Below, piece after piece: positions 118-34,790 of a stretch of 64,000 nucleotides of DNA. Position 1 is the stretch's first letter; each line of letters starts with the position of its first letter. Below the pieces are notes generated by a model. That model had not been told where the DNA came from, did not search any database, and saw only the letters and a program-made list of their open reading frames with translations. The DNA is from a virus (Duplodnaviria; Caudoviricetes): IMG/VR virus record IMGVR_UViG_3300025358_000002, positions 32,001-96,000 of that record. One strand, given 5' to 3'. Made by a program: the position numbers and the translations under genes.

Positions 118-2751
118 ATGGCTTACCCCACATATACAACTCCTAGATCAATCGCTGGCGCAGCTGCACCTTCCTATCTTTCTGCAACGCTTGCTAGCGG
201 GTATTCTGCTGGGCAAACAGTTACAATTGGCAATACATCTGGCTGGTATGAAGTAAGCTCAAGCGGCACTGCCACCACAAACCCATTGGGAACTAGTGGT
301 GTATTTACGTTGGTGGTTGATTACGGCCTCAGCACAGAGGAAAAGATCCTGTGCGCATCCGGTGCTATCTCTATTGGTGTTAATGCAGTAATCCCAGTGT
401 GGACAGACGGTACACACAACGGCCGTGGCTGGGATGGAACAAAATCAGTAGCACATGCTACGGGTAGTGGCACCAACCCTAATGTATTCCTCGTTAGAAC
501 TGCAGTAGATGACCTTCAGTTCAATACATCAGCGGCCACACTAACCAACAACCTTGCTACTCTTTCGGGTCAATATGTCGTCACTAGCGGCATTGTAACT
601 AATACAACTACCAATGTTGCTGCTCTTAGCGGTTCACTCGCTACCTTGTCTGGCCAATATGTTGTCACCTCTGGCATTGTTACAGCTCAAGCTGGTTACA
701 TTTCTACGATCTCAGGCAAGCAAGTAACTGATGAAGCAAATATTGCTAGTTTTTCAGGCAGCTTGGCAACCCTCAGTGGTCAATATGTAACAACCAGTGG
801 GATTGTAACCAGCCACACTGGGTCAATTGCAAGCATCAGCGGTAGCCTTACTACTCTTTCTGGACAGTTTGTTGTGCTAAGTGGTGCATACGCTGCCACT
901 TCAGGTAGCCTAAACACCGTAAGCGGAGTCGCTTACTCTGCTTTGCAACGATCAGGTGGCACTATCAGCGGTGCATTGAATATCACCAGCCCCATCCTTG
1001 GTGGTGTAACTGCTACTAGCGGACAATCTCTTGTATGGAACAGCACACAATGGGTGCCAGCAACGGTTAGTGGCGGTGGTGGAGGGATCACTTCTCTTAC
1101 CGGTGACGTAACTGCAACCGGCACAGGTGCAGTCGCTGCAACTCTGGTTGGTACAACCGCTGTTAGTGGTGTGGTAAATGCCATTGTCAATAACAACTCA
1201 ACAGTAACAGGAACAGTTGCAAACCTTGCCACATTGAGTGGACAATTCGTTACACTTTCAGGTCAGTTTGCGACCCTTAGCGGCGCCTATGCAACCACAT
1301 CAGGCAACCTCAATACAACAAATGCTAATGTAGCAAGCTTAAGCGGCCAATTTGCTTCACTTTCAGGACAATACTTAACAACGTCTGGCATAGTTACTAC
1401 TGCTACCGGTAACATTGCTACCCTTACCAGTAACCTCGCTACCCTTAGCGGACAATATGCAACCACATCAGGAATCCTCACAACGCTATCTGGTCAATTT
1501 GTTGCATTGTCTGGTGCATACGCCACAACATCAGGCAATTTAAATACAACTAATGCTAACGTTGCAACTCTTTCAGGACAATTTGTAACATTATCTGGGC
1601 AATACAATACAACTAGCGGGATTGTAACTTCCCACACAAGTTCAATTGCTTTAATTAGTGGCAGCTTGAACACTCTTTCAGGGCAATACGTTGCTACATC
1701 AGGCAGTCTAACAACGTTATCGGGTCAGTTTGTAGCACTCAGTGGCGCTTATGCCACTACATCAGGTAACTTAAATACAACCAATACAAATGTATCGAAT
1801 CTTAGTGGTCAGTTTGCTTCATTGTCAGGTCAGTACCTAACAACTTCGGGAATAGTTACTACTGCAACTGGCAACATTGCTACATTAACTAGCAACTTAG
1901 CTACCCTGAGCGGTCAATATGTTGCTACGTCTGGAAGTCTTACAACTCTTAGTGGTCAATTTGTAACATTAAGCGGTGCATATGCAGCGACTTCAAGTTC
2001 TTTGAACACACTTTCTGGACAGTATGTAGCCACTAGTGGTAGCCTTACAACTTTGTCAGGTCAGTTTGTAACGCTTAGTGGGCAATATAACACAACATCT
2101 GGTATTGTTACTGGTCACACGAGCTCTATCGCGCTAATTTCAGGCAACCTTAACACCGTTAGTGGTGTAGCTTATGCTGCCCTGCCAGGATCCGGTGGAA
2201 CTATTAGCGGCAACCTTGTTGTTGCTTCTGGTCTTACTGTATCTGGCACATCAACACACATTGGTAACTCTACGTTTAGTGGTACTCTTACAGTGGCAAG
2301 TGCCATTATCAACCCTATCCTTCAGGGTGCTTATGAAGTTGTATCTTACAGTGGATCAACCGTGCTTAGCGGAACGGCTACTCCAGCTACGCTTAATGCA
2401 GCAAACAGCTCTTTCTATTTCTATAACACAGCACCATCTGGTTCATATACAGTAGCAATCACCGGAGCACCAACCGTGTCTGGTAGAAGCGCCACTTTTG
2501 CTTTGCTTGTAAATAATGGTTCTACGGCTTATTTGCCCAGCAACGTTACCATTAATGGTAATCAAGCGGGTGCAAGTAGCTCAGCACTCCCATTGCAGGG
2601 TGCGACAAACAATAACATTACTACATTTTACCAAGGTGGCACAGCATGGTCTTCAGCGGATGCAAGCACTCTTGATTCATACACGTTTACTGTGATCTGC
2701 ACGTCATCCACCCCAACATGGACATTGTTAGCAGGATTGACAAAGTTCTAA
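118..2751 (+). CDS. Long fibre/whisker-like virion protein with heptad repeats
   Basis: 877 aa, rich in S/T/G; long (LSGQYVT/TSGxLxT)n repeat shaft; beta-rich C-terminal domain shared with 19845..20630. Confidence 0.75.
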   Translation: MAYPTYTTPRSIAGAAAPSYLSATLASGYSAGQTVTIGNTSGWYEVSSSGTATTNPLGTSGVFTLVVDYGLSTEEKILCASGAISIGVNAVIPVWTDGTHNGRGWDGTKSVAHATGSGTNPNVFLVRTAVDDLQFNTSAATLTNNLATLSGQYVVTSGIVTNTTTNVAALSGSLATLSGQYVVTSGIVTAQAGYISTISGKQVTDEANIASFSGSLATLSGQYVTTSGIVTSHTGSIASISGSLTTLSGQFVVLSGAYAATSGSLNTVSGVAYSALQRSGGTISGALNITSPILGGVTATSGQSLVWNSTQWVPATVSGGGGGITSLTGDVTATGTGAVAATLVGTTAVSGVVNAIVNNNSTVTGTVANLATLSGQFVTLSGQFATLSGAYATTSGNLNTTNANVASLSGQFASLSGQYLTTSGIVTTATGNIATLTSNLATLSGQYATTSGILTTLSGQFVALSGAYATTSGNLNTTNANVATLSGQFVTLSGQYNTTSGIVTSHTSSIALISGSLNTLSGQYVATSGSLTTLSGQFVALSGAYATTSGNLNTTNTNVSNLSGQFASLSGQYLTTSGIVTTATGNIATLTSNLATLSGQYVATSGSLTTLSGQFVTLSGAYAATSSSLNTLSGQYVATSGSLTTLSGQFVTLSGQYNTTSGIVTGHTSSIALISGNLNTVSGVAYAALPGSGGTISGNLVVASGLTVSGTSTHIGNSTFSGTLTVASAIINPILQGAYEVVSYSGSTVLSGTATPATLNAANSSFYFYNTAPSGSYTVAITGAPTVSGRSATFALLVNNGSTAYLPSNVTINGNQAGASSSALPLQGATNNNITTFYQGGTAWSSADASTLDSYTFTVICTSSTPTWTLLAGLTKF
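541..2180 (+). repeat. Degenerate 21-nt-period coding repeats encoding LSGQ(F/Y)xx / TSGxxxx heptads
   Basis: Peptide blocks such as ATLSGQFVTLSGQY and LSGAYATTSGNLNTTN recur with divergent synonymous codons. Confidence 0.85.
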
Positions 2752-3773
2752 TGCCACTCGTAACTACATTCGCAAACGATGCTATCCAAGCACTCAATGT
2801 GTTTTCTTCGCAAACTGTAGTAGCTGTTACAGGATCACACATTTATTTTAACGCTTCAAATACTTATACTTTTACCGTTCCATCAGGTGTAACTCAAATT
2901 TCAGTCCTTGCTATCGGGGGTGGTGGCGGTGCTGCTGGTGGTGTAATTGCTGGTCAGAATGGCACTGCTTCAACCGTAAAGAACAGTGGTGGAACGACCC
3001 TTATCAGTGCCGGTGGTGGTTCTAGAGGAGCAAGCGGTGTCCCAGGCACAGGCGGAACTGCTTCATTCGGAACTGGTGTCACGGGAACAGGATATTCAGG
3101 TGGTTCTGGTGGTTTGCGTGGTGGCGGTGGCGCAGGTGGTTACACAGGTGCTGGTGGTGCTGGTGGTGCTACAGCGTCTTCGGCTGGTTCGGCAGGTACA
3201 GGTGGTGCTGCCGGTGGTGGTGGCTCGCCATCGTCAAACGGTGGTGGCGGTGGTGGAACGGGCGTTTATGGCTCTGGTTCCAACGGCGCAGGTGGTAACT
3301 CAACAGTAGGCTCACCAACAGAGGGCGGTCAGCCGGGTTCCAATGTCACTTACACGGCTGGCGCAGGTGGGCCCGGTGGCAACAACACGTCGTCTACTTC
3401 AGAGGGCGGTGACATTGGTTCCTATCCATACACGGGTCTTGTCGCTGGTTCGTCAACCGGACTTCAATCGAACACCGTATATTCGGGTGGTGGAAACGCT
3501 AGTGGTGCTGCTGGTGGCGGAGGAGGCGGTTGGCCCGGTGGTGGTGGTGCTGGGCAGAACTCCACAGGGGGTGGTGGAGGCGCTTTAGCCTACGCCAATC
3601 TTAGTGTTTCACCGGGTCAGACCTACACGATAAATGTTGGAACTGGCGGAGGCGGATATGGTAACGGTGCCGGTGGAGCATCTGGCGTTGTCCGCATTGT
3701 CTGGAATACAACATCAACGCCATCATTCCCATCAACTAATGTTGCTTCAACTACAAATGAAGTGTATAACTAA
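2751..3773 (+). CDS. Glycine-rich virion protein (fibre-tip associated)
   Basis: ATG at 2751 overlaps the upstream TAA; motifs FTVPSGVTQISVLAIGGGGG, VSPGQTYTINVGTGG and GASGVVRIVW are typical of glycine-rich phage tail proteins. Confidence 0.7.
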   Translation: MPLVTTFANDAIQALNVFSSQTVVAVTGSHIYFNASNTYTFTVPSGVTQISVLAIGGGGGAAGGVIAGQNGTASTVKNSGGTTLISAGGGSRGASGVPGTGGTASFGTGVTGTGYSGGSGGLRGGGGAGGYTGAGGAGGATASSAGSAGTGGAAGGGGSPSSNGGGGGGTGVYGSGSNGAGGNSTVGSPTEGGQPGSNVTYTAGAGGPGGNNTSSTSEGGDIGSYPYTGLVAGSSTGLQSNTVYSGGGNASGAAGGGGGGWPGGGGAGQNSTGGGGGALAYANLSVSPGQTYTINVGTGGGGYGNGAGGASGVVRIVWNTTSTPSFPSTNVASTTNEVYN

Positions 3774-4102: not shown

Positions 4103-4136
4103 TTTTACCTTAGTTAATAGACCAAAAGGAGATAGT

Positions 4137-7889: not shown

Positions 7890-8410
7890 GCGAGATGGTC
7901 CCAGTACCAGAGCAAATTGCTAGACAAATTGCAATGAGAGCTGTAGAAATTGCGCGCGTTATTGGTCCACGCAAAACCGGTAAAGCCCTTCTTGGTTTGA
8001 CACCTATTTCACAAGAAGGTATTATTGGTATAGATGCTAGTGAAGAAGTAAGTTATATTCTTGATCTAGACCAGGGTATTGAAGAGCACCCTATGACCAA
8101 CCTTGCTGGTCGTAACGTGCCAGTGCGCAGTCCTGGTGGAACAATATTTTTCCGCAGAGCTACAGAAAACAACATTGGTACTATTCCGATTATTACTAGG
8201 CTTTCAAAAGACGGAAGAATCTACAACGGTAAGCCGGAATGGACCTACCCTGCAAAGCCCGGCCTCAACTTTATTCAACGTTCACTAGAGATGAGCGTAG
8301 ACGAATGGTGCAGATCCGCAAACACTCAAAAAGTCGTTGACATGATGCTATTATCGTCTATCAAAGATGATGTAAGCATGTTTGTTTATGGAAAGAAAGC
8401 CAGCGTATAA
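7886..8410 (+). CDS. Neck/tail-completion protein (HK97 gp10-like)
   Basis: PRKTGKAL, LDQG and WTYPAKPGLNFIQRSL motifs; synteny. Confidence 0.55.
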   Translation: MSEMVPVPEQIARQIAMRAVEIARVIGPRKTGKALLGLTPISQEGIIGIDASEEVSYILDLDQGIEEHPMTNLAGRNVPVRSPGGTIFFRRATENNIGTIPIITRLSKDGRIYNGKPEWTYPAKPGLNFIQRSLEMSVDEWCRSANTQKVVDMMLLSSIKDDVSMFVYGKKASV

Positions 8411-9087
8411 TGTTCGTAACAGCCGTAAAAACAACAATTATCGAAGCATTAAACGCAGGATTTAGCCAGCTGTCTAGCCACCCCGTTGATAATAGTTTAG
8501 ATCTTGTTCCCAATAGTATAACCATTGAGTATCCGCTAGAGTTAGTAGCGTGGCCAACCATTCTTGTGCAATTCCGCGCAAGCAAGGTTCAATGGACTGG
8601 ACTCAATCCAGATATTTATTCTGTTTCATCCAGCGGTATTTCTATTAGTGGCACCACATATTCGGGTACCGTAGTAAACAGAACCGGTTATTTTGAGGGA
8701 AGTATTGACCTTCAAATCATGGCAATGCACTCAGAAGAGCGCGACCGCCTTATGGACAGCGTTACAAACTTGATCCTTATGGGTGCGGGTAGCCCCGCTA
8801 GCTCCGCTTTCTACGCCAGTATCTACAACAACGACCTGGTTGGATTGACGCTGTTGCCCAGCACCTATACCAATTTGGGTGACAGCATTAGCTCAGGAAC
8901 TCCGTGGAGCCCAGAGGAATTAACTTACGAAGCCAGCTTCCGCATCAACTGCATTGGCGACTTCTACGAAACAAAATACAACTACGAATTGCCACAGATC
9001 ACAACAATTGTTACGAGTGGGACCCAATACTACCCATCAGTTTCATCGTTGTACCAGCCAGGAACCCCCTGGTATCCGCTTCCTTAA
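8410..9087 (+). CDS. Tail terminator/completion protein
   Basis: Immediately upstream of the sheath; EYP...WPTILV and IDLQIMA..SEERDRLMD pattern. Confidence 0.55.
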   Translation: MFVTAVKTTIIEALNAGFSQLSSHPVDNSLDLVPNSITIEYPLELVAWPTILVQFRASKVQWTGLNPDIYSVSSSGISISGTTYSGTVVNRTGYFEGSIDLQIMAMHSEERDRLMDSVTNLILMGAGSPASSAFYASIYNNDLVGLTLLPSTYTNLGDSISSGTPWSPEELTYEASFRINCIGDFYETKYNYELPQITTIVTSGTQYYPSVSSLYQPGTPWYPLP

Positions 9088-10954: not shown

Positions 10955-11428
10955 ATGGCAAAGTCCACATTCCGCGTAGGTGGAGGATACACCGCGTTCG
11001 TATACAACGGTCAGCCGTTGATTTACGCTCAGGTAATCAACGAGCGCGCTCCTTCACCCGTCGCATCACCAACACCGGTTCAGCCACTTGACTCGCCATA
11101 TCCTATCGAAATCGCGTTGCCCATTGCTCTTACCGCTGGATCAATTGAGCTTACGTTCCTAGAACAATGGAATGCAGAAGTCTGGGCACAGCTCGGCAGC
11201 AACTTCACCACAGCTTCTGACCTCCTTGACGTGTTCAAGGCCCAGCTGGCACAAGGTGAAGTGACATGCGTAAAGATCATCAATAAGCCAGACGGTACAC
11301 AACGCAAGATTGTTTACCAGGGGTGCGTCGTTACAAACGTCCAGATTGATGAAATGATATCTATTGGTGTAATGACAATTCCTAAGATTGTTACAATCTC
11401 GTATCGCTCAAGAAAAGAACTCTTCTAA
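10955..11428 (+). CDS. Tail tube protein
   Basis: 157 aa directly after the sheath; C-terminal YQGCVVT..QIDE pattern. Confidence 0.8.
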   Translation: MAKSTFRVGGGYTAFVYNGQPLIYAQVINERAPSPVASPTPVQPLDSPYPIEIALPIALTAGSIELTFLEQWNAEVWAQLGSNFTTASDLLDVFKAQLAQGEVTCVKIINKPDGTQRKIVYQGCVVTNVQIDEMISIGVMTIPKIVTISYRSRKELF

Positions 11429-24610: not shown

Positions 24611-27600
24611 TGTCGATCATCCCAAGTAATACTGACCCGTTACAGGAATATGTAAGCGGTGGTGCGACTCCACCATTAACAATTAACGGGCTTGTATATA
24701 ACAAGATCTATGCACAAACAGGTGTGCTTGACACCATCAAGACCAACCAACGCACTGGGTATACAGATCCCAACATCAGCATTGTTAACGGGTCCAACAA
24801 CCTCACTATCTTTGACCAATTTGTTGAAAACACGTGGATCTCTAGCCAGCAATTCGGTGGACCCAACAGCCCTCCTGTTATCCTGACATACAATTTCAGT
24901 ACCAACACCTACTTTAACATTGTCAAACTGTATGCGCTTAATGTTCCATGCTTTGTTGAACTAGGTTGGATTGACACCAACAACAATTGGAACGCTCTTC
25001 CTGGTTCCTCCACGTTTGTTAACGCCGGTGGCTCTGATATCTACACCACTACTGACTGGTTGCCCCTTACATACAACGCACCGTCTACACAGTACACACC
25101 CAATTTAGCAATCCGGATCACACGCAACCAAGCGGTTCAAGGTATTAGCAATGGTATCCCTGTAGACCTTGCATACTCGGTGGGCCTTACATCCGTCAGT
25201 GTCCGTTTGCAAGTGCTGCAAGAATCTGATGTACCTTCTGCGGTTATCAACGGAACAAACTCCGTCAATACGCAGAACCGTTTTGGTTTCTTAGAGAACT
25301 ACACGTTTGTCAACGATCCTATAGCCAACATTTATGGCAATGACACTGCATTCTGGAAGTGTGCACCACAACCAACTGGCGACTCCATTGTTTATTTTTA
25401 CGCTCAGGTAAGTGACCCTACGCCAACAACGATCAACCGTCTATACATTGACCCAATGTACAGCGGATGTAAGTTCAACATCTACTGGACTACTCAGTCC
25501 ACTGCAGGTGGAACTGTTGACCCAGGTCAGTTCACATGGACACCAATTCAGAGAGACTTTAATCTGCGTAAAGGGCTCTATGATTTGCCAAACGTTACGT
25601 GTACGTACTTGAAGTTTGAGTTCACACAGCTTATACCAGAAGCATATGACCTGCCTGTTGACGTCATCACAAAAACTGTCAACGTGTTTCCTTCAGATGT
25701 TGAAGAATATTACAGTCAAATTGAAAGCAACATTATCGATGGAAACTCTGTTCAGTACAGTTTCCTTGGCAACAACAACAACCCACAAACTTCAACTACC
25801 ACAAACCTGAATGCTTCTACGCTGTTTGGCCTGTCTTCAAATACTATCAACAATGACATCTCTTGGCCAAACCTAGGTTCACTTAATTCTTCACAGCTTG
25901 GTAATACCACTACGACTGCTCTTACAACCAACTCCTACATTACTGACCCTACTTTTAGTTACAAAACCATTGACAACAATGGTAATTACAATAACGTTGC
26001 ATACAACCAGTTCTTGCAGCGTCGTTTCCCGTGGACAACCGTACACAACTACACTCAGATTACTATTGATCAGAGCTGGCACGAAGCCTACTTCACGGGT
26101 ATCCAGTATCTTACAGCGTTTTACGAACAACAGTTTGACGATATCCGCAGCAACCCAACCAATCTGATCGCAAGTAACGGCACCACCAACGGTTTTATTT
26201 CTCAGAATGTTAACTACGTGGGTCTTAACCCCGATGACACTGCCACAACAAAATGGTACTCAACTCTTGATACATTCACCAGTTTTAATATCGGTGCTCT
26301 TACTAGTGACTGGAGCAGTTTCTTAACAGATTCGCAAGTTCTTATGAACGATTCATCGGTTCTGCTTAGCCAGTACAGAGATAATTGTTCCGCCAGCGGT
26401 ATTGGCAACTTTGGAACCAGCACCATTGTTGCTGTTTCAGGTCTTGCCAGCAACAACTCTTATAGCATTCGTTCAGCAGCGTACCCAACATCGAGTAACG
26501 AAATTGCGTATACAGATGCAAACTTTATCACGATCAACAATTGGTCAGGTTTGAGCGGCACCACCGTAGCAACACAAAAAGTGTCTTGGATTTCTGGCAC
26601 TACAAGTGGTACCGCTAGCGGGTTGTCTGTTAGTGCTGGTGCATACACAGCTGTATACAACTTCACTATTCCAGGTGTAGCGGCAAGCGGTACTACGCCA
26701 TGGCTTCTTGATTTTGGTGCTCCAGCAGAGGGTGTTACTGGTTATGGTGTCTATAACCCAACGAACCAATCTTTAAGCTATTACTTCTACACAGGGGTAC
26801 AAGTATCCGGCAATAGCTCTGGCATCTCACAGGTAAGCGGAACGCTTAGTGCCTACACACAGTTCGTGAATTCATCCAATGCTCCTGTTAGCGGTACGGT
26901 CGTACCAGGATCTACGGTTACATTCGCATCCGGTAGCGGTAGCAACCTTGGCTACTTGACATCAACGAACTATACCAGCAGCATTCCAACAAACACAATC
27001 CAGCTCGTTATCAGTGGCTTTGGTAGCCCGTACAACTTGTACCAACTTGGTGCTTTCCCATCACCAACAACTACATGGACATCTCCACAAGACCGAAACA
27101 ACATGCGTGTAAGTGGTGTTGCCAGAATGTTCTTACCCTTTACTGATAAGGGTACATACAGAATTAGTTTATTTGCAAGCAACGGTGCAACGCAGACAGA
27201 GCTTGCGTTCAAGCAGTTCTCATCTGGGCAGATCCCTCTCAATACGTGGTTTGAAGTACAACTGGAATCTTTTACGGGTAAAAACTACTCCAATTTCTAC
27301 GTACAAATTACCCAGGTAAACCAGTTTGTTGACGAAGTATTTTACGTAAGTATGCTGTCACCCTTCTACCACCCAGTACGTTTTGAGTACAGCACTATTA
27401 GCGGAGCTGCAACCAACTACCAGGTAATCACTGGTCCTATTAATGATCCTACATATTTTGTGAGCACCACATCAGGTATTCCAGCCAGTGGTATTCAGCT
27501 GAGGATGACCGCTCTTGACCCAAACGTTTTCATTTCTGGAGTGAGTGTTGTTCCTTATTACAAGAGTAGTCCTTACTATGCAGAACTGGATATTGATTAC

Positions 27601-27744
27601 GTTGGCAACAGTAAAACCAACGAGGTCAGTTCACGTAGAGCTGTAGCGAACAAACCGTTCTTTCAGAATACTACTGAGGTTTATCCTCTCCGTTTCAATG
27701 TAGATACTGTAGTAGGACCTACGACAAATTACGTTTCAGCTTGA
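24610..27744 (+). CDS. Large baseplate/tail-fibre-associated structural protein
   Basis: 1044 aa, beta-rich with S/T/N/G bias; ends the tail module. Confidence 0.6.
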   Translation: MSIIPSNTDPLQEYVSGGATPPLTINGLVYNKIYAQTGVLDTIKTNQRTGYTDPNISIVNGSNNLTIFDQFVENTWISSQQFGGPNSPPVILTYNFSTNTYFNIVKLYALNVPCFVELGWIDTNNNWNALPGSSTFVNAGGSDIYTTTDWLPLTYNAPSTQYTPNLAIRITRNQAVQGISNGIPVDLAYSVGLTSVSVRLQVLQESDVPSAVINGTNSVNTQNRFGFLENYTFVNDPIANIYGNDTAFWKCAPQPTGDSIVYFYAQVSDPTPTTINRLYIDPMYSGCKFNIYWTTQSTAGGTVDPGQFTWTPIQRDFNLRKGLYDLPNVTCTYLKFEFTQLIPEAYDLPVDVITKTVNVFPSDVEEYYSQIESNIIDGNSVQYSFLGNNNNPQTSTTTNLNASTLFGLSSNTINNDISWPNLGSLNSSQLGNTTTTALTTNSYITDPTFSYKTIDNNGNYNNVAYNQFLQRRFPWTTVHNYTQITIDQSWHEAYFTGIQYLTAFYEQQFDDIRSNPTNLIASNGTTNGFISQNVNYVGLNPDDTATTKWYSTLDTFTSFNIGALTSDWSSFLTDSQVLMNDSSVLLSQYRDNCSASGIGNFGTSTIVAVSGLASNNSYSIRSAAYPTSSNEIAYTDANFITINNWSGLSGTTVATQKVSWISGTTSGTASGLSVSAGAYTAVYNFTIPGVAASGTTPWLLDFGAPAEGVTGYGVYNPTNQSLSYYFYTGVQVSGNSSGISQVSGTLSAYTQFVNSSNAPVSGTVVPGSTVTFASGSGSNLGYLTSTNYTSSIPTNTIQLVISGFGSPYNLYQLGAFPSPTTTWTSPQDRNNMRVSGVARMFLPFTDKGTYRISLFASNGATQTELAFKQFSSGQIPLNTWFEVQLESFTGKNYSNFYVQITQVNQFVDEVFYVSMLSPFYHPVRFEYSTISGAATNYQVITGPINDPTYFVSTTSGIPASGIQLRMTALDPNVFISGVSVVPYYKSSPYYAELDIDYVGNSKTNEVSSRRAVANKPFFQNTTEVYPLRFNVDTVVGPTTNYVSA

Positions 27745-27769: not shown

Positions 27770-27775
27770 TTGTTC

Positions 27776-29629
27776 ATGTCTTCAGATAAAGTTATATACA
27801 TCCAGAGAAGTGAAATTCTCAATGGAGTACTAAGATACAGCAGTCTGGACGAAGAAGTCAAGAAATTATTTTCATTGGATTCCTACGGTACTCTCCGGGA
27901 TCGTGACAAGATCAGCTTTTTTGATGACTTGATCAGGTATAACGGTTACGAATTGCAGTTTGAAGATCAAGATGCTGAGGACAGGTACTACTCCCTCTTG
28001 GCATGTAGTAGGAACCCGTACGAGGTGAACAGTCCTTTCTTGGATGATCACCAGCTCTTCCCATTTCAACACATCGGGTTGAACTACGTCTGGGAACAAC
28101 TGCATTCTAGCAAACCAAGGGTGCTGGTCCAGTGGGACACTGGTGCTGGTAAGACTCTTCTCAGTTGCTTGACCAGCCAGAAATTGTTCGATGCTGGCGA
28201 TGTGGACCTTGTTCTGGTCTTCTGCAAAAAGATCAAGCAGTACGACTGGGAGCAAGAGTACCGTCGTATGACCCATCTTACTGTTGCACGTGTTGGCGAG
28301 AAGATGACCCGTGCCAAGCGTCATGCATTTTATGAGCAAGATAAGTCGCAGGTGCTAGTTCTTAATTACGAGAAAGTGCGTGACGGATCTCTCAAGAAGG
28401 TCAAGGGAGAACGTCGACGCGTTAAATCGTATGACCGCACTGACCTTCAGCAGATACTCGAGATGGCGTCCGACAAGCGTGTGCTGGTTGTCATTGATGA
28501 ATCACAGAAGATTAACACTGGCACTAGTTTATTGAGTGATGGGTTTACTCGCTTGATCAACGAAGTGGCAGACACTATGGTGCTGGCGCTTACAGCTACT
28601 CCCTACACCACCAGCCCACTGAACATCCGCAACATTATGTCAGTGGTTGCTCCTGGTATACCGGATGTAAGCGACATGAGTCGCGACAAATTTAAGTCCA
28701 TGTACGGCAAAGAGTTTGGTCTCTTTAACAATGGGTTTGTCCAGGAAGTGTACGTCAAGGAATGGGACCGTGCCAAGCTCCCTATCTTGGGTAAGAAGCA
28801 CGAGGACTGGACGCACATCGCAATGAAGAGTGACCCTACTATTGCAGCCCAGTTTCCTGAGAGTATGCCCAAGCGTCTGGTGTACGAGCTGTCAGATCTT
28901 GACCGTGAGATCTACGACTGGGCGGAAGAGCGTGCTCGAGAAAAGTACAACCCTGACAATCAGGTAGCCAACTGGTCATACATTGACACCCTGCGCATGA
29001 TCTGCAACACCACCGAGGGACTGAAGAACAGTGACAGCAAGTTCGCCAAGGAAATCGTGGCAGAATTTGGCAGCGACATCAGCATCCAGAACAGCTCCAA
29101 GTATCAACTGATCGAGGGCAACCTTGAATCCTACATTGAAAATGGCGACAAGTCTGTGCTGTTTACGTTCTGGACAAACGGAACGCTGTTCCCTTATCTC
29201 GAAGCCCTAAGGGCTAAGTTCTCTGGCGTACCCATCCTCCCTATCTGGGGCGTGGGCATGAGCAGCGACGAAGTAACCAAGAATATCAAAACATTCAACG
29301 ACACCAAAGGACCGGCCATCCTGATCACCAGTGATGTCGGTCAGGAAGGGCTGAATCTGTATGCGCCATACCTCTGGAATATTGAGATTCCAAGAACTTA
29401 TGCGGAATATAAACAAAGAGCTAACCGAATTAACCGAGCTGACTCGAAATCAAAGGGAATTAATCACACTTGGATCTACCGCCCAGTTGCGAGCAATACA
29501 ATCGAAGAGCGCGTTGATAGTAAAGTTCTGCGAAGAAGAGCTGAAGCGGAATCTATCCGTGGAGTAGTCGACGAGCTAGGCGACATGGAAGACACTATTG
29601 ATCTAACCCCTAAGGGTTTTCTTTTCTAG
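27776..29629 (+). CDS. SNF2-family (superfamily 2) helicase/ATPase
   Basis: LFPFQHIG, DTGAGKT, VIDESQ, ALTATP, TSDVGQEGLNL, QRANRINR, TIEERV. Confidence 0.9.
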   Translation: MSSDKVIYIQRSEILNGVLRYSSLDEEVKKLFSLDSYGTLRDRDKISFFDDLIRYNGYELQFEDQDAEDRYYSLLACSRNPYEVNSPFLDDHQLFPFQHIGLNYVWEQLHSSKPRVLVQWDTGAGKTLLSCLTSQKLFDAGDVDLVLVFCKKIKQYDWEQEYRRMTHLTVARVGEKMTRAKRHAFYEQDKSQVLVLNYEKVRDGSLKKVKGERRRVKSYDRTDLQQILEMASDKRVLVVIDESQKINTGTSLLSDGFTRLINEVADTMVLALTATPYTTSPLNIRNIMSVVAPGIPDVSDMSRDKFKSMYGKEFGLFNNGFVQEVYVKEWDRAKLPILGKKHEDWTHIAMKSDPTIAAQFPESMPKRLVYELSDLDREIYDWAEERAREKYNPDNQVANWSYIDTLRMICNTTEGLKNSDSKFAKEIVAEFGSDISIQNSSKYQLIEGNLESYIENGDKSVLFTFWTNGTLFPYLEALRAKFSGVPILPIWGVGMSSDEVTKNIKTFNDTKGPAILITSDVGQEGLNLYAPYLWNIEIPRTYAEYKQRANRINRADSKSKGINHTWIYRPVASNTIEERVDSKVLRRRAEAESIRGVVDELGDMEDTIDLTPKGFLF

Positions 29630-29773
29630 AAAGGATGTAAAGGTGGGGAGAACTTGGTCCCAGATAGTGAGGCGGCTGAATGTTTATCGTCGTCTCCAGA
29701 AGGGCCCGGTCTTCCTCGGGGGTCGCAGTCGGTGTCATACTTTGACTCCCCCCGAGGCCCTTCTGTAAACATT

Positions 29774-30133
29774 ATGCAATTAACAATTGATTACAGCTGG
29801 CAAAACAATGCCACGTGCAGCACCATGGACCTCAATGATTTTTTCTTAGGTCACGGTAAAAAATATTCAAAAGCAGTATCTGATGCGTGCACCTCTTGTC
29901 CGGTAAACAAAGAATGCTTAGACCATGCATTGAAGTATGAAGAGTATGGTTTTTGGGCTAACACCACGCCGCAAAGACGAGTAAAGATGCGCAAGGAACT
30001 TGGCATCAAGGTAGAAAGCATCACGTACGAATCTCAAAAAGCTGCTGACAAAGATGCTGCCAAGATAGAAGAGACGCGTGTTAAGATTAGAGGGCGCGGC
30101 AGAAAGCCACGCAATCTTCAGGAGCAGCTATGA
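29774..30133 (+). CDS. whiB: WhiB-family Fe-S transcription factor
   Basis: WQNNATC...FF...CTSCPVNKECLDHAL..EEYGFWANTTPQRR (4 Cys and a GxW turn); ATG 29774 preferred over the track start 29654. Confidence 0.85.
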   Translation: MQLTIDYSWQNNATCSTMDLNDFFLGHGKKYSKAVSDACTSCPVNKECLDHALKYEEYGFWANTTPQRRVKMRKELGIKVESITYESQKAADKDAAKIEETRVKIRGRGRKPRNLQEQL

Positions 30134-30831
30134 GATCAGTTAGAGTCGGTTTGGTAATCCCCGTATTGAATAACTTCGATCAAGCAATCGATGCCATCTA
30201 CTCAGCTAAGAGTGAAAACGATCTTAGGATCTACATCCAACCACAGTATCGTTATCAGGTGCCATTGGCAGCAGCATGGAATCGTGGCATCAAACAAGCT
30301 TACAATGATGGCTGTGTTGTTACTATTGTTAGTAACGACGACGTTCTGTTCGCCCCAAACACCATCGATGAACTGGCCGATGCGGCTAGAGACATGAACG
30401 ACGATGAGATCATGGTGCACCCCAACGACATCCTGGAAATACTGGATGACCCGTCAGAAATTTTATTCTTAGACGAATGGGGCGACGAACCACTTAGTCA
30501 CGAAGATCAAACATTCTCGTGCTTTGCTATCAGATCAGACTTTACTTCTGAGATGGGTACGTTCGATGAGAACTTTGACCCAGCCTGGTGGGAAGACACT
30601 GACATGAAGTACCGTATCAATCTCATGGGTTACAAACGTGTGCGTACACACATTCCATATGTGCACCTGCGCCACCAGTCAACACAGAAGCTGAACCTTC
30701 CACTCAACTCATTGAAGAGTGGCGAATACTATGCTAAGAAGTGGGGTAGCAACGGTAGAGGCTTGACAGAAACGTTTACCAACCCGTATAATGATCCTAG
30801 CTTAAGTCCTACAGAGTGGAGAAAACTGTGA
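30130..30831 (+). CDS. Glycosyltransferase family 2
   Basis: VIPVLN, AAAWNRGI, SNDD, GTFDENF...WEDTD...R, YVHLRHQS. Confidence 0.85.
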   Translation: MRSVRVGLVIPVLNNFDQAIDAIYSAKSENDLRIYIQPQYRYQVPLAAAWNRGIKQAYNDGCVVTIVSNDDVLFAPNTIDELADAARDMNDDEIMVHPNDILEILDDPSEILFLDEWGDEPLSHEDQTFSCFAIRSDFTSEMGTFDENFDPAWWEDTDMKYRINLMGYKRVRTHIPYVHLRHQSTQKLNLPLNSLKSGEYYAKKWGSNGRGLTETFTNPYNDPSLSPTEWRKL

Positions 30832-32099
30832 GCAAGACGCGCGTATTGGCATGGGGCGACTACGCCTGCAGTACTGGATTCGGCACCGTGATGAAGAACA
30901 TCATGAGTGAGTTAAACAATACTGGCAAGTATGAGATTGACGTTGTGGGTGTCAACTATGACGGTGGCCCATACGACACTGAGAAGTGGCCAGGCACACT
31001 GTGGCCAGCCATCAGCGCACTGCGCACACAGGGTCCATACGGTGACGTGTTCGGTCGACAGGTATTCCTAGACCTGCTGGGAACACGTGAGTACGATGTT
31101 GTGTTTATCGTGCAAGACACGTTCATCGTTCTGCCAATCGTAGCTCAGATCCTCGAGCTGCAGCGCACTAAAACTAAGACGTTCTCCACTGTTTACTACT
31201 ACCCGTTCGACTGCGCACCACGAGAAGAGTGGGTCACTCAGTGTGTTGCTAGCTTTGACTTCCCTGTTGCTTATACGGAATACGCAAAGAACGAAAGCCG
31301 AAAGTTCATTGGTGGTTTGGCAGACAAGCAGCACGTTATCTACCACGGTACCAACACCAAGGACTTCTACCCATTGTCACCAACCGACAAAGAATCTGCA
31401 CGCCAGTCAATCTTCCCAGCTCAGCTGCAAGACAAGTTTATTATCACCAATGTCAACCGTAACCAGGGGCGCAAGGATGTGTCTCGTAGCTTGATGATTC
31501 TCAAGCAGCTGAAAGACATGGGTGTTAAGGAAGCATTCCTTTACATGCACATGCAGGAGACGGACTTCGGTGGCAGCCTTATGCAAATGGCACAAGCTAT
31601 TGGTGTTAAGCCAAGCGAAGACTTCACCGTACCAGACCCACGTCAGTTCGGTGCGCACAGTGGATTTCCCATTGAGTTTCTCAACGGTATCTACAACGCT
31701 AGTGACTGCTACTTGACCACCACACACGGTGAGGGTTGGGGACTTAGTATCACTGAATCTATGGCCACCAAGCTTCCTGTTGTTGCTCCTGACAACACCT
31801 CAGCACCTGAGATCCTGGGTAATGACCGTGGCTGGAGAATTAGCAGTGGCCGTACACCTTCGCACTGGATTATCAAGGACAACGACAACGAGCGTATGCG
31901 TCCGCTGATGGATGTTGAAGAGGCCGCCAACACCATCAAGTACATCATGGACAACCCTGACGAAGCTGCTCGGCGTGCTGAGAATGCTTACGCATGGATC
32001 CAAGAACACACTTGGTCAGATGTATGCAAGCAGTGGCTCAACGTGTTCAAGCTGGCGGCCAACAGCGCAAAGTCTAAGAACCTGTTGAAGGGACAATGA
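30828..32099 (+). CDS. Glycosyltransferase family 4 (GT-B)
   Basis: STGFGTV, IYHG, NVNRNQGRKD, YNASDCYLTTTHGEGWGLSITESMAT. Confidence 0.9.
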   Translation: MSKTRVLAWGDYACSTGFGTVMKNIMSELNNTGKYEIDVVGVNYDGGPYDTEKWPGTLWPAISALRTQGPYGDVFGRQVFLDLLGTREYDVVFIVQDTFIVLPIVAQILELQRTKTKTFSTVYYYPFDCAPREEWVTQCVASFDFPVAYTEYAKNESRKFIGGLADKQHVIYHGTNTKDFYPLSPTDKESARQSIFPAQLQDKFIITNVNRNQGRKDVSRSLMILKQLKDMGVKEAFLYMHMQETDFGGSLMQMAQAIGVKPSEDFTVPDPRQFGAHSGFPIEFLNGIYNASDCYLTTTHGEGWGLSITESMATKLPVVAPDNTSAPEILGNDRGWRISSGRTPSHWIIKDNDNERMRPLMDVEEAANTIKYIMDNPDEAARRAENAYAWIQEHTWSDVCKQWLNVFKLAANSAKSKNLLKGQ

Positions 32100-32755
32100 T
32101 GAGAAATAACGTACTGTTGATCGTTCCTACGCGCAGTAGACCAGAGAAATCTTTTGAGTTCTACGAAGCGTTCAAGGAGAACTCAAGTATCACTGATCTC
32201 TTGTTTGCCCTGGACGATGACGACTTTGAGTACCCACAGATCGAGGGCGTACAGTACGAGATCAATCCACGCATGGGTATGAACGGAACGCTTAACTTCG
32301 TAGCCAACAAGTACGCTGAGGAATACGATTACCTTGCTTTTATGGGTGACGATCACCGCATTCGTACCAAGAATTGGGACAAGGAACTTGTGTCAACGAT
32401 CACTGGCTTTGAGAATGGCGTAGCTTATGGCAACGACCTGTTGCAGGGACAGAACCTACCAACAGCTGTCTTGATGGATGCTCACATTGTACGCAAGCTG
32501 GGATACATGGCACCACCTAAGCAGCGTCACCTATACCTGGATGACTTCTGGAAGACGCTTGGCGAAGGTCTGGGTACACTACGCTATAGCCCAGGTGTAA
32601 TCATTGAGCACCTGCACTTCACCAACGGCAAGGCAGACGAGGACGCATTGTATCAGGAAGTAAACGCACCAGCTTTGTTCGATCAAGATCGCAAAGCATA
32701 TGGCGAGTACATGCTTCACGACTTCGTTAATGATCTGGCTAAGCTGAGAGGTTAG
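32096..32755 (+). CDS. Glycosyltransferase family 2-like
   Basis: IVPTRSRP, FALDDDD, AFMGDDH, HLYLDD, IEHLH. Confidence 0.8.
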   Translation: MMRNNVLLIVPTRSRPEKSFEFYEAFKENSSITDLLFALDDDDFEYPQIEGVQYEINPRMGMNGTLNFVANKYAEEYDYLAFMGDDHRIRTKNWDKELVSTITGFENGVAYGNDLLQGQNLPTAVLMDAHIVRKLGYMAPPKQRHLYLDDFWKTLGEGLGTLRYSPGVIIEHLHFTNGKADEDALYQEVNAPALFDQDRKAYGEYMLHDFVNDLAKLRG

Positions 32756-32756
32756 C

Positions 32757-33338
32757 ATGGAGTGGAAACTTTTTGGCGGTGAAACTTCAGAGTATGCCAG
32801 CAAAGATTGGTATGAAAGTCGTGAAGTAGCCAACCATCTTGACCAGCAAGAACACCGTGAGCGTTTGCTTAAAGCGTTTTATTTCGTTCGTGAAGCAATT
32901 GAGATGGGTGCTAAGTCTGTTGTAGACCTCGGATGTGGTGATGGCGGTCTGCTGTCATTGCTTAAAGATGAGCCCATTGAAGCATGGGGCTATGATCTTA
33001 TGCCAGTCAACGTTGAGTACGCCAAGAATGTTAGAGGTGTAGATGCACGTTACACCGACTTTAACAACGATAGCAGTATTGAATACGCAGACGTTGCTGT
33101 CATGACTGAAACGCTTGAGCACATGGAAGACCCACACTTAGTCGTTAGAGAATTGCCATCCAAGTTCTTGGTAGCAAGCAGTCCATATAATGAAAACGAC
33201 GTATCACACTATGAGTTCCACCTCTGGGCTTGGGATAACGATGGATACCGAAAGCTTTTAGAGCAGGGCGGCTACACAGTTATCAGGCAAGAGAATGTAA
33301 GTGGTTGGTCACAGGTTTTGCTGGGAGTTAGACAATGA
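32757..33338 (+). CDS. Class I SAM-dependent methyltransferase
   Basis: VVDLGCGDGGLL, GYD, ETLEHMEDP. Confidence 0.9.
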   Translation: MEWKLFGGETSEYASKDWYESREVANHLDQQEHRERLLKAFYFVREAIEMGAKSVVDLGCGDGGLLSLLKDEPIEAWGYDLMPVNVEYAKNVRGVDARYTDFNNDSSIEYADVAVMTETLEHMEDPHLVVRELPSKFLVASSPYNENDVSHYEFHLWAWDNDGYRKLLEQGGYTVIRQENVSGWSQVLLGVRQ

Positions 33339-34210
33339 AAATCCTTATTACTGGCTACAAAGGATTTGTTGGCAGATACTTTGTTAGAAAGTACGGAAGC
33401 GACCACGACATCACTGGCATCGACATTGTAGACGGTCGTGAGCATGATGTCCGCGAATTCTTTAAGCGCAACAGAGAACACTATGATCTTGTAATCCATC
33501 TAGCAGCTGTTGTAGGTGGCCGCATGACTATCGAAGGCAACCCACTCTCTGTTGCTGTAGACCTTTCCATTGATGCAGAGATGTTCCAATGGGCATTGCG
33601 CACTAAGCCAGGACGCATCGTTTACTTCTCTAGCTCCGCTGCTTATCCCATTGATCTGCAGACAAGAGATTCCGGCATCAAGCTTCGTGAAGATGCTATC
33701 GACATCAACAACCTGAAGATGCCCGACCTTACGTACGGTTGGAGCAAGCTGACCGGTGAGTACCAGGCACAGTTCGTTCAGGCGGAAGGTGTCAAGGTAA
33801 ACGTCTTCCGTCCGTTCAGTGGTTACGGGGCTGATCAGGATCTGGACTATCCTTTCCCATCGTTTATTAAGCGTGGCAAAGACCGTAGCAACCCATTTGA
33901 GATCTGGGGTGATGGATGCCAGGTCAGAGACTTTATCCACATAACTGACATTGTCAACGCAGTTGATGAAGCCGTGCGTCAGGATGTAGAAGGTCCAGTG
34001 AACCTGGGCTGGGGTAGACCAACTTCTTTTAACGAGCTTGCCGAGATAGTATGCCACCAAGTGGGCTACGAACCAGAGATCAAGCACATTGAAACAGCAC
34101 CTACCGGAGTAATGTATCGCGTGTGTGACCCCACAAAGATGCTGTCTTTCTATCAGCCAAAGATCTCCCTGGAAGACGGTGTTGATCTAGCACTGGCATT
34201 CAATGTCTGA
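33335..34210 (+). CDS. NAD-dependent NDP-sugar epimerase/dehydratase (extended SDR, GDP-mannose-epimerase/fucose-synthase-like)
   Basis: ITGYKGFVG, HLAAVVGG, SSSAAYP, YGWSK, IWGDGCQVRDFIHITD. Confidence 0.9.
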   Translation: MKILITGYKGFVGRYFVRKYGSDHDITGIDIVDGREHDVREFFKRNREHYDLVIHLAAVVGGRMTIEGNPLSVAVDLSIDAEMFQWALRTKPGRIVYFSSSAAYPIDLQTRDSGIKLREDAIDINNLKMPDLTYGWSKLTGEYQAQFVQAEGVKVNVFRPFSGYGADQDLDYPFPSFIKRGKDRSNPFEIWGDGCQVRDFIHITDIVNAVDEAVRQDVEGPVNLGWGRPTSFNELAEIVCHQVGYEPEIKHIETAPTGVMYRVCDPTKMLSFYQPKISLEDGVDLALAFNV

Positions 34211-34790
34211 GATCACCGCACTGATCAGAACCATCGGCAGGCCAACACTCGGCAATGCCATTGAGTGCGCAAAGCGTGAGTTTGACAGAGTAGTTGTTGT
34301 CGCTGACAACGTTGATATCTCACAAGATGTTGACAACGTTACCTACTTGCGTACCGGACAGAAGTTCGGATTCTATGGAGGAGCGGCTATCAACATGGGT
34401 GCTTACGCCACAACCACCGACTTCTTCTGCCTGCTGGATGACGACGATGAATACGTAGATGGTGCAGGGTACAAGATGAAGTCCTGCATCATAGAAGAAC
34501 CTGATGTTGACATCTGGATTCCCGGCCTTCTTTACAACGACGGTGCGACTGCATGTATGTCAGATGCAGCAGGTGTAGCGATTGGCAACATTGCTGTCCC
34601 AACGTATCGCACACAGCTACTGTGGGAGCAGCCATTCCACGCCAAGCTTGGAATCCATGACATCAACTGCATAGATTTTTATCACGTCTTGTCTTTACAT
34701 GCCGCTGGCCATAGTGTACAATGGTACGGAGAAGCACTGTACAGGGTGAGACCAGAACTATCTGGTAGATTTGGAAAAGGAAGCGTATGA
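34203..34790 (+). CDS. Glycosyltransferase family 2-like
   Basis: IRTIGRPTL, VVVVAD, CLLDDDD. Confidence 0.75.
   Translation: MSEITALIRTIGRPTLGNAIECAKREFDRVVVVADNVDISQDVDNVTYLRTGQKFGFYGGAAINMGAYATTTDFFCLLDDDDEYVDGAGYKMKSCIIEEPDVDIWIPGLLYNDGATACMSDAAGVAIGNIAVPTYRTQLLWEQPFHAKLGIHDINCIDFYHVLSLHAAGHSVQWYGEALYRVRPELSGRFGKGSV

Follow-up and report, generated by a model that had tools for sequence, protein, structure and literature searches.

Why should the outward-facing proteins of a virion be crowded with the dipeptide Ser-Gly (SG), and has this anything to do with the sugar-transfer genes that lie beyond its tail module? The question is raised by a 64,000-nucleotide stretch of DNA (the window) from an uncultured, freshwater, actinobacterial phage, whose features are given here by their plus-strand coordinates. 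An earlier note had proposed that SG is a phage-defined glycosylation sequon, over-used in outward-facing virion proteins. The over-use is real: the counts behind it were reproduced exactly, and composition does not explain the excess. When observed counts are set against composition-expected ones, SG is the strongest dipeptide outlier in a subset of virion proteins, with 69 SG against 16.5 expected in the 877-aa fibre (118-2751; 14 GS; z = 15), 30 against 10.3 in the baseplate J or wedge protein (21123-23648; 9 GS; z = 7) and 23 against 8.2 in a 1044-aa minor tail protein (24610-27744; phrog_2840; z = 5.5), where 21 of them lie in residues 560-1044. Outside the enriched set, the rest of the genome holds 147 SG, with 145 expected.

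Around this core lie weaker signals. The tail sheath (9153-10946; phrog_2839 at 7e-36) carries 10 SG against 5.6 expected, a marginal enrichment (p about 0.05), and all ten fall in residues 19-333, in keeping with the N-terminal restriction described before. Equally marginal are the 225-aa protein encoded just upstream of the sheath gene (8410-9087; phrog_2748; 5 against 2.0, p about 0.04), in which the previously reported SG cluster SSSGISISGTTYSGT was located, and a 333-aa protein of no assigned family (11446-12447; no Pfam or PHROG match; 9 against 4.4, p about 0.025). Two small proteins encoded just upstream of the window, near the capsid gene, have 10 SG against 2.6 and 8 against 3.1. Internal proteins are SG-poor, as had been noted: none in the tube-position virion protein (10955-11428; phrog_2756), three in the tape measure (13418-15682; assigned by position and size and used as the SG-poor control; 6.2 expected, relatives' ratio 0.91) and five in DnaE. 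Neither the 925-aa hub-like virion protein with its NlpC/P60 domain (17071-19848; phrog_2810 at 4e-96, PF00877; 9 against 6.8, relatives' ratio 1.08), nor the 320-aa DUF7297 virion protein (23648-24610), nor the major capsid protein (2 against 0.9) is enriched, and capsid, tube and sheath core have neither SG enrichment nor Ser/Thr-rich C-terminal tails. Since enrichment is missing from capsid, tube and the greater part of the sheath, the dense coat once envisaged over the whole virion is unsupported; the excess keeps to those stretches of virion proteins that are exposed and clade-specific, and there it is conserved.

In the SG-enriched virion proteins GS stays at its expected level, and in eight SG-rich proteins Ser precedes 38% of the Gly residues, against 7% elsewhere. 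All six Ser codons occur at these sites, so the signal acts at the protein level. The enriched proteins have no detectable mutual sequence similarity; that SG should stand far above GS in each of them (z = 5 to 15), with the rest of the genome at expectation, argues for a trans-acting common factor rather than an inherited domain. Such a factor need not transfer sugars: the serines could be marked by phosphorylation or acylation, or recognised by an assembly chaperone, phage- or host-encoded, given that the same convergence demands a common Ser-Gly reader without saying which. We consider this improbable, since the proteins scanned include no pattern-linked candidate kinase, acyltransferase or fibre chaperone, and near the tail module no conserved modifying enzyme other than the glycosyltransferase GT4, described below, was seen.

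Alternatively, SG may be purely structural, a Ser-capped tight turn (ST-turn type) or beta-roll corner in fibrous, beta-rich outer domains, with the glycosyltransferases acting elsewhere, most plausibly on the host cell envelope or a lipid-linked glycan (for exclusion of other phages, or release), and GT4 co-occurrence reflecting shared ancestry only. This is a serious possibility, if short of a probable one, and a structural role is about as likely as a sugar-attachment role. The fibre speaks for it most directly: 36 perfect seven-residue units follow the consensus [L/T/I]-S-G-[Q/S/A]-[Y/F/L]-x-[T/A], with Ser and Gly invariant and hydrophobic positions alternating; SG spacings are 7 in 36 of 68 cases and 14 in 12 of 68, so that the claim of an SG about every seven residues stands inside the repeat zone and not elsewhere in the fibre; and the protein matches the Pfam family LbR_Ice_bind (PF21300; 1e-23, 83.6 bits). 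In homologs of the fibre SG is still 2-5 times as frequent as expected, and some of them bear YadA_stalk or Phage_fiber_2 domains. The fibre SGs belong to a heptad, beta-roll-like repeat, the roll being a candidate fold that the AlphaFold model (pLDDT 33.5) does not confirm. The local SG context, [T/V]-[A/V/I]-S-G-[T/I], reads as strand-turn-strand, and AlphaFold's model of baseplate J (pLDDT 71.6) puts most SGs at strand-SG-strand junctions or strand ends, the commonest class (7 of 30) lying directly between two strands and most others at strand ends or in loops. What a structural role leaves unexplained is why, in this clade alone, dissimilar proteins converge on SG, and not on GS, NG or DG, and do so with no hidden 7- or 14-residue periodicity outside the fibre.

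Baseplate J (PF04865, phrog_6; Foldseek matches to phage baseplate wedge chains) carries evidence in both directions. The earlier counts of about 30 SG and 9 GS, mostly in an inserted central domain, are borne out, 27 of the 30 SG falling in a clade-specific insert (about residues 230-700); homologs from Rhodococcus phage E3 and cluster C cover just 45% of the protein. SG stands at 1.9-3.8 times expectation in all 34 aligned sequences (the window and 33 homologs) and at 2.8 times across 23 relatives, the relatives' ratio for the 1044-aa protein being 2.47. SG serines are retained more often than other serines, both in the insert (0.53 against 0.33, p = 0.005) and in the C-terminal half of the 1044-aa protein (0.50 against 0.33, p = 0.014), while in the same analysis of these two proteins the Gly of SG is retained no more than other Gly. 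Extra conservation on Ser, not Gly, is hard to reconcile with a purely structural motif. The replacements in baseplate J point the other way: consensus SG Ser gives way mostly to Asn or Asp (odds ratio 3.2 against Thr), as would follow if Asx-turns and ST-turns can stand in for one another, and neither residue can be O-glycosylated, which counts against attachment at these sites. The Asn/Asp bias is absent from the 1044-aa protein.

The candidate enzymes are encoded after a SNF2/ResIII helicase (27770-29629) that separates them from the tail module. A WhiB-like regulator (29654-30133; PF02467 at 6e-13) overlaps by four bases the gene for GT2a (30130-30831), a 233-aa GT-A-like protein that matches a galactosyl transferase family (phrog_29879, 2e-16) and scores 19.1 bits with PF00535, below the cut-off of 23.3. 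There follow GT4 (30816-32099), a 427-aa GT-B glycosyltransferase (PF00534, 39.8 bits; phrog_2170, 1e-48) with an EX7E motif at E306-E314; a 219-aa protein that is a glycosyltransferase by PHROG only (32096-32755; phrog_14945, 9e-55; no Pfam match); a SAM-dependent methyltransferase with the motif VVDLGCGDG (32757-33338; PF13489, 7e-13); an NAD-dependent nucleotide-sugar epimerase/reductase with GxxGxxG and YxxxK motifs (33335-34210; PF01370, 6e-28), nearest to GDP-L-fucose synthase (NF047922) at 79.7 bits, far under the cut-off of 500; and GT2b (34203-34790), a 195-aa GT-A glycosyltransferase at 28.8 bits with PF00535, above cut-off. The cassette as first described is thus upheld by Pfam cut-offs for GT4, the methyltransferase, the epimerase and GT2b, and not for GT2a or the 219-aa protein. 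No membrane-spanning segment is present in any of the six enzymes. A perfect sigma-70-type consensus (TTGACA, 18-nt spacer, TATAAT; 30763-30792), a consensus match only, lies within the 3'-terminal part of GT2a, 24 bases ahead of where GT4 begins.

The cassette runs in the same direction as WhiB, overlaps it and follows the helicase, a placement that suits a host-directed function too, and PHROGs assigns each of the four glycosyltransferases to its category 'moron, auxiliary metabolic gene and host takeover', as a structural role for SG would have it. The enzymes might instead glycosylate phage DNA (hypermodified bases) to escape restriction, SG being unrelated: phage glycosyltransferases are, in the account given by PMC12619734, best known for DNA glucosylation, and GT4 has a match to PF20706 ('GT4 in conflict systems') whose score lies exactly at cut-off. 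We hold this to be highly improbable, because no thymidylate-synthase-like hydroxymethylase or TET/JBP was found in the 107-kb record (72% complete, with the TET control matching nowhere), and because an epimerase, a methyltransferase and four transferases have the look of a glycan pathway rather than of a DNA mark with one sugar.

Does the excess travel with the enzymes? Co-occurrence with the cassette in relatives, which the sequon proposal implied, holds for one gene. GT4 is found in 30 of 34 related records, that is, in all 30 that reach its position (59-81% identical, EX7E invariant), and is a core gene of the clade, the sole cassette gene universal there; GT2a occurs in most, not all, relatives, the other four genes are variable, and among the loci compared the 219-aa protein occurs in L010 only. 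SG excess is kept in every relative and is the same in the closest relatives without four or five of the six genes; the six-gene cassette is therefore not the correlate, and methylation of any glycan is optional at best. What survives of the proposal is an excess that is real, conserved and accompanied by GT4, and, both being universal in the clade, their co-occurrence amounts to one evolutionary event. Beyond the clade, homologous tail proteins lack SG excess in Rhodococcus phage E3 (no GT2 or GT4 family match) and Mycobacterium phage Cane17 (no GT4), and in three co-occurring freshwater phage records without a GT4 match (14-91% complete), whose fibres are very rich in Ser, Thr and Gly, those fibres hold SG and GS in about equal numbers, SG being 1.2-1.3 times as frequent as expected; a structural role accounts for neither. 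In the unrelated record G040, which has only GT2a and GT4 in common with this genome, SG/expected reaches 2.3 (Ser/Thr/Gly-rich proteins). Across unrelated phages with the GT2a-GT4 pair, SG excess is weak and inconsistent (1.2 to 2.3 times), and it is not clear in most independent carriers of the GT4 family, in line with a structural role: 1.34 in Tetrasphaera phage TJE1 and 1.22, 1.30 and 1.11 in G045, G046 and G047, against a baseline of 1.2-1.3, with 1.6 in G044 and G048 and 1.44 in fifteen further carriers pooled, counted within 10 kb of GT4 only.

Our tentative preference, held at somewhat less than even confidence, is that SG serines in outward-facing, clade-specific virion parts are candidate O-glycosylation acceptor sites, the putative acceptors being the fibre, the baseplate J insert, the 1044-aa protein, the outer sheath domain and the two small proteins near the capsid gene. 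The first sugar would be attached by a soluble, cytoplasmic GT4 before the tail is assembled or while it is; lengthening or diversifying the glycan would fall to GT2a and, in this phage, to three further enzymes together with the methyltransferase and the sugar epimerase/reductase. From the excess, its conservation and restriction to exposed parts, the retention of SG serines and a universal GT4 with its catalytic motif intact, we infer protein as the acceptor, SG Ser as the site and this order of enzymes. G040, the low SG of GT4-less phages, Ser retention and six enzymes without a membrane segment favour O-glycosylation; the near-baseline SG of most independent GT4 carriers and the unenriched capsid, tube and sheath core count against it, as do the strict fibre heptad with its beta-roll family match and the strand junctions predicted in baseplate J.

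Among known systems, eukaryotic proteoglycan Ser-Gly xylosylation uses the same dipeptide, and acidic flanks are the rule at its sites; here the residues flanking SG are depleted three-fold in Asp and Glu, so the analogy drawn earlier fails. The cassette also departs from the proteoglycan enzymes in having only GT2- and GT4-type family matches (GT14 was outside the search), with no match to UDP-xylose synthase and its sole epimerase-family protein nearest GDP-fucose synthase. The left-handed beta-roll of the Lolium ice-binding protein (PF21300) and YadA-type adhesin heads resemble the fibre in their seven-residue half-turn with a small residue and Gly at the corner, the repeat consensus being xxNxVxG in the Lolium protein and LSGQ[Y/F]xT here. 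By sequence, the best solved-structure match to GT4 is B736L of Chlorella virus PBCV-1 (PDB 3oy2; E = 2.7e-5, residues 195-412), a virus-encoded GT-B enzyme, the match being weak and limited to the C-terminal half of GT4. The closest cultured-phage GT4 homolog (38% identity over 96%) belongs to TJE1, whose cluster comprises a nucleotidyl transferase, a guanylate kinase, a nucleotide-sugar epimerase, a methyltransferase and GT4, the last adjoining the methyltransferase and the epimerase (24% identical to the one here); TJE1 differs in being a siphovirus, with the cluster beside terminase genes and SG at baseline. TibC and Aah, acting on TibA and AIDA-I, hyper-glycosylate Ser in the cytoplasm on repeated beta-solenoid adhesins, much as is proposed here; TibC modifies Ser, not Thr, in beta-helix repeats, and at one of its mapped sites, ...QNSGG..., an SG occupies the turn of a repeat, although these bacterial enzymes are dodecameric, iron-containing, ADP-heptose-using members of another family for which no strict SG rule is described (PMC4358343). 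Cane17, a distant relative in cluster C, has GT2 genes and no SG excess. In mycobacteriophages, phage-made glycans sit on capsid and tail tube subunits, at their C-termini (Freeman et al. 2023, Cell Host Microbe 31:1216, as relayed by PMC12619734), whereas here the candidate sites are SGs dispersed through fibre, baseplate and distal tail; the two are alike in being actinobacterial phages with their own glycosyltransferases, their own virion proteins as the proposed target and shielding as the proposed role.

The source record (IMG/VR; 106,865 bases, with the window at bases 32001-96000) has a CheckV completeness estimate of 72% and carries all its large genes on the + strand. Portal (genome positions 21345-23702) and major capsid protein (28633-29631) are encoded upstream of the window, which begins directly downstream of the head genes and runs through an 877-aa fibre (window positions 118-2751), neck proteins, sheath, tube, tape measure, hub, baseplate J and a 1044-aa tail protein, followed by an SNF2 helicase, WhiB, a sugar cassette and replication genes. 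WhiB and a distant similarity to Rhodococcus phage E3 and the Mycobacterium cluster C myoviruses place this virus among the phages of Actinobacteria. The identity of baseplate J is given by PF04865 (96.6 bits), phrog_6 (1e-44) and, in Foldseek, hits on wedge chains of phage baseplates (E = 1e-9).

The dipeptide Ser-Gly (SG) is strikingly over-used in a subset of these proteins. Each of the SG counts made by eye in the earlier note was recovered on recount, and the excess persists against one thousand residue shuffles per protein, from which the expectations, z and p of this paragraph were taken. The fibre holds 69 SG where 16.5 are expected (z = 15), baseplate J (21123-23648) 30 against 10.3 (z = 7) and the 1044-aa protein (24610-27744) 23 against 8.2 (z = 5.5). 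Between the capsid gene and the fibre, a 245-aa protein (L042:11662-12399) has 10 against 2.6 (z = 5.3) and a 201-aa protein (L042:12505-13110) 8 against 3.1 (z = 3.2); these two lack a family match, have some of the highest SG densities in the genome and may serve as decoration or fibre components of the head. Weaker excesses, each with p of 0.025-0.05, occur in the sheath (9153-10946; 10 against 5.6), a 333-aa protein (11446-12447; 9 against 4.4) and a 225-aa protein (8410-9087; 5 against 2.0). None of the eight has more of the reversed dipeptide GS than expected, and 38% of their Gly residues are preceded by Ser, compared with 7% elsewhere. Outside the fibre, SG is the largest deviation of any dipeptide in the SG-rich set (109 against 42.5), and the remainder of the genome sits at expectation (147 against 145). 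All ten sheath SGs fall at residues 19-333, leaving the conserved C-terminal core without any, and there is no enrichment in the major capsid protein (2 against 0.9), tube (10955-11428; none), tape measure (13418-15682; 3 against 6.2) or hub (17071-19848; 9 against 6.8).

Two further proteins deserve mention. A 351-aa protein (2718-3773), overlapping the last 34 bases of the fibre gene, is 30% Gly with 49 Gly-Gly pairs; it is rich in Ser and Gly, yet shows no SG excess (9 against 12.9). Upstream of the window, a 663-aa protein without a family match (L041:5670-7661, genome coordinates) contains an extended Pro-Ala-Lys repeat (APAPKPAP...) and, after it, approximately PTPSGTGGGQIKTP in six tandem copies, and its SG excess (14 against 6.4) arises from that tandem repeat.

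Use of all six Ser and all four Gly codons at SG indicates selection at the protein level and rules out a cause at the level of DNA. Several other explanations were set aside: BLASTP among the SG-rich proteins found no shared domain below E = 0.1, spacings of 7 and 14 residues gave no hidden heptad outside the fibre (p = 0.15), and avoidance of deamidation-prone Asn-Gly is not supported as a driver, NG standing at 0.79 of expectation like every other xG (DG 1.08). The local context is roughly [T/V]-[A/V/I]-S-G-[T/I], and charged residues, both acidic and basic, are scarce around it (within four residues, Asp 0.8% against 2.6% and Glu 0.5% against 1.4%). AGY codons account for 100 of 170 SG serines (59%) compared with 172 of 378 other serines in the same proteins (46%); together with frequent alternation of Ser and Asn, this bias hints that many SG sites may derive from Asn-Gly turns.

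Protein architecture offers one account of the pattern, namely that SG is a purely structural motif, a reading we rate as short of an even chance and only slightly less likely than the acceptor reading below. It draws support from the fibre, where SGs sit in a strict heptad, [L/T/I]-S-G-[Q/S/A]-[Y/F/L]-x-[T/A], with 36 exact units and 14-residue variants, and where five stretches match the beta-roll family LbR_Ice_bind (PF21300; 1e-23, 83.6 bits against a cut-off of 30); an AlphaFold2 model from 15 homologs (pLDDT 33.5) was unusable for the question of a left-handed beta-roll. Homologs of the fibre carry SG at 2-5 times expectation, including those with few heptads. A DNA pattern search for the heptad-SG fibre returned nine records, at least four of them already known from the baseplate J alignment and none demonstrably an independent lineage, and tblastn of the fibre against cultured phages gave one marginal match. 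Further support comes from baseplate J. Built on 34 sequences (mean pLDDT 71.6), its AlphaFold2 model is assigned by Foldseek to the phage baseplate wedge proteins. The commonest class of its 30 SGs, seven in number, lies directly between two strands, and the others are mostly at strand ends or in loops, with a few in helices. These modelled positions fit surface turns, which would be compatible with a structural role and with an acceptor role alike.

Conservation among relatives shows where the constraint falls. Searches recovered 85 homologs of baseplate J. In an alignment of 33 of them with the window's copy, to which they are 35-75% identical, every homolog carries 1.9-3.8 times the expected SG, and the majority of SG sites appear in the consensus. 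Across 23 distinct related loci the SG ratio is 2.8 in baseplate J and 2.5 in the 1044-aa protein, compared with 0.9 in the tape measure, 1.1 in the hub and 0.5 in the helicase (27770-29629); a search for related loci with the 1044-aa protein as single query found nothing. Measured with the window's own residues as reference, SG serines are retained more than other serines both in the baseplate J insert (0.53 against 0.33, p = 0.005) and in the C-terminal half of the 1044-aa protein (0.50 against 0.33, p = 0.014), and glycines in SG show no such advantage over other glycines. This measure replaced one based on consensus-defined SG sites, which pre-selects conserved columns and had suggested that these serines were no more conserved than others. 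Within the clade the SG serine is conserved beyond the level of other serines, yet far from invariant. Its replacements in baseplate J are Asn or Asp more than Thr (odds ratio 3.2), an exchange that also favours a structural motif, and in the 1044-aa protein Thr is the most frequent; neither set of counts is phylogenetically independent, and mutation may account for some of the Asn preference, since AGY-to-AAY is a transition.

The second account turns on the sugar-transfer genes behind the tail module. From WhiB through GT2a (30130-30831), GT4 (30816-32099), a 219-aa protein (32096-32755), a methyltransferase (32757-33338), an epimerase/reductase (33335-34210) and GT2b (34203-34790), successive junctions are -4, -16, -4, +1, -4 and -8 bases, and none of the six cassette proteins has a membrane-spanning segment. 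GT4, methyltransferase, epimerase and GT2b exceed their Pfam cut-offs. GT4 falls among the retaining GT-B glycosyltransferases (PF00534, 39.8 bits against 26.4; PF13692 above and PF20706 exactly at cut-off; phrog_2170, 1e-48), with an EX7E motif in its C-terminal domain (E306-x7-E314, EGWGLSITE) in which both Glu are unchanged in nine sequences down to 39% identity. GT2b scores 28.8 bits against 23.3 and has DDD and DVD motifs; GT2a falls below cut-off at 19.1 bits, with one DTD and a PHROG galactosyl transferase match (2e-16), and the 219-aa protein, lacking a Pfam match, is a glycosyltransferase by PHROG only (phrog_14945). A perfect sigma-70-type consensus (TTGACA-18-TATAAT, 12 of 12) lies at 30763-30792, within the end of GT2a and 24 bases before GT4; GT4 may have a promoter of its own, which would fit the many relatives that keep GT4 while lacking GT2a.

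Every one of the 30 related records long enough to include the region keeps the order baseplate J, 320-aa protein, 1044-aa protein, helicase, WhiB, (GT2a), GT4; the four without GT4 are small fragments or end upstream of its position. GT4 identity to the window's copy is 59-81% across the clade, a higher conservation than that of the tail proteins. GT2a is absent from 11 loci that hold GT4, including those of the closest relatives, where only about 1 kb separates GT4 from homologs of the window genes at 35982-37494, a gap that leaves them without the 219-aa protein, methyltransferase, epimerase and GT2b. These relatives show the same SG excess, so the correlate of SG is at most GT4 alone, and the proposal that the whole six-gene cassette accompanies it falls away.

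Other targets for these enzymes were also considered. Thymidylate-synthase-like and TET/JBP genes were not found in the record, which is incomplete, and the TET control search matched nothing anywhere. The nearest cultured-phage homolog of GT4 (38% identity), in Tetrasphaera phage TJE1, is grouped with a nucleotidyl transferase, an epimerase and a methyltransferase and adjoins terminase genes; in small freshwater phages a GT2a-GT4 pair lies directly upstream of ORFs that resemble terminase and portal in size only; and in Arthrobacter phage KellEzio a weaker homolog sits between tail terminator and tail chaperones. Such positions, adjoining structural modules or within them, hint at a virion target but do not prove one.

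Within the clade GT4 and SG excess are both universal, so their association there amounts to one evolutionary event, and other phages were compared by SG and GS ratios computed over every open frame that spans 150 aa or more and contains 22% or more Ser+Thr+Gly. This genome gives 2.02 for SG and 0.92 for GS. Five controls without a GT4 family match give 1.23 and 0.81 (E3), 1.24 and 1.04 (Mycobacterium cluster C phage Cane17), and, for the freshwater records G035 (91% complete), G039 (83%) and G038 (61%), 1.29 and 1.20, 1.17 and 1.26, and 1.26 and 1.28. Among carriers of GT4, those with GT2a give 2.30 and 1.27 (G040), 1.58 and 0.99 (G044), 1.22 and 0.96 (G045) and 1.30 and 1.02 (G046), and the others 1.11 and 1.31 (G047), 1.60 and 0.97 (G048) and 1.34 and 0.83 (TJE1). 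Pooled SG is 1.45 in these seven independent carriers and 1.26 in the controls, a borderline difference too weak to decide the matter; fifteen further carriers pool at 1.44, counted within 10 kb of GT4 only. Two fibre homologs without SG excess, P0115 and P0121, trace to phage records without a GT4 match (G035 for P0121); among these two and P0109, which have a segment in common with the fibre, some carry YadA_stalk and Phage_fiber_2 domains. The expected co-occurrence of SG with glycosyltransferases stands in part: the excess is absent from outgroups without GT4, and most other GT4 carriers show none either, as a structural motif would predict. On these comparisons the GT4-SG association is clear for the clade versus outgroups and weak elsewhere.

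The GT2a-GT4 pair itself, judged by gene content, is a portable two-gene module. It recurs in L110/L118 (G040), L137 (G044), L138 (G045) and L139 (G046) at 39-43% and 48-51% identity, in unrelated phages of 36-39 kb (with direct terminal repeats in G044 and G045), and GT2a (39%) and GT4 (51%) are the only proteins common to G040 and this genome. Three of these phages also each encode a tail-region protein of about 540 aa (G044:20248-21858, G045:16320-17954, G046:11752-13380), with SG at about twice expectation (9/4.2, 10/4.0 and 8/4.3) and GS counts of 4, 4 and 1.

We regard it as quite possible, if short of an even chance, that SG serines are candidate O-glycosylation acceptor sites. Unrelated proteins converge on one ordered dipeptide, confined to their exposed, clade-specific parts; the added constraint falls on Ser and not on Gly; GT4 is soluble and universally kept in the clade; and there is no excess in outgroups or in the equally Ser/Thr/Gly-rich fibres of other phages. 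Precedents exist in mycobacteriophage virion glycans, as summarised in PMC12619734, and in TibC, which acts on Ser (PMC4358343). The earlier note had gone further, to a dense, methylated glycan coat produced by the complete cassette, which is unsupported as stated: capsid, tube and sheath core are unenriched, as would also be expected of a purely structural motif.

Taken as a complete scheme, a phage-defined Ser-Gly code with its own enzyme module and dozens of evolved sites seems rather less likely than not to us, although worth setting out. A soluble GT4, often with a small GT-A enzyme, would form a portable two-gene module in unrelated freshwater actinophages, recognise [hydrophobic]-Ser-Gly where outer domains of tail, baseplate and fibre make turns, and add a glycan there; dozens of SG sites would have evolved in the phage proteins, a good number of them plausibly by AAY-to-AGY transitions in Asn-Gly turns. 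Glycosylation of their own particles is, to our knowledge, known for few phages, and we know of none among them with a simple acceptor rule. Were SG to serve as one, sequence alone would suffice to predict which phages are glycosylated and which of their surfaces are modified, with a bearing on host recognition, virion stability and immune shielding, and a small enzyme-plus-tag pair would be available for glyco-engineering. Were it only structural, an unusually strong clade-specific dipeptide bias would stay on record, along with a caution against over-reading SG as a sequon, here and in similar phages.

The candidate sites differ from two known systems. The Ser-Gly sequon of proteoglycans has acidic flanks and a supply of UDP-xylose, whereas in this phage acidic residues are scarce around SG and the epimerase is nearest to GDP-fucose synthase rather than to UDP-xylose synthase. 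Mycobacteriophage-type glycosylation uses the C-termini of capsid and tail tube subunits as acceptors, whereas here the capsid (2 SG against 0.9) and tube (0 SG) have ordinary C-termini; what this phage has in common with that system, by sequence matches, is that it encodes glycosyltransferases of its own.
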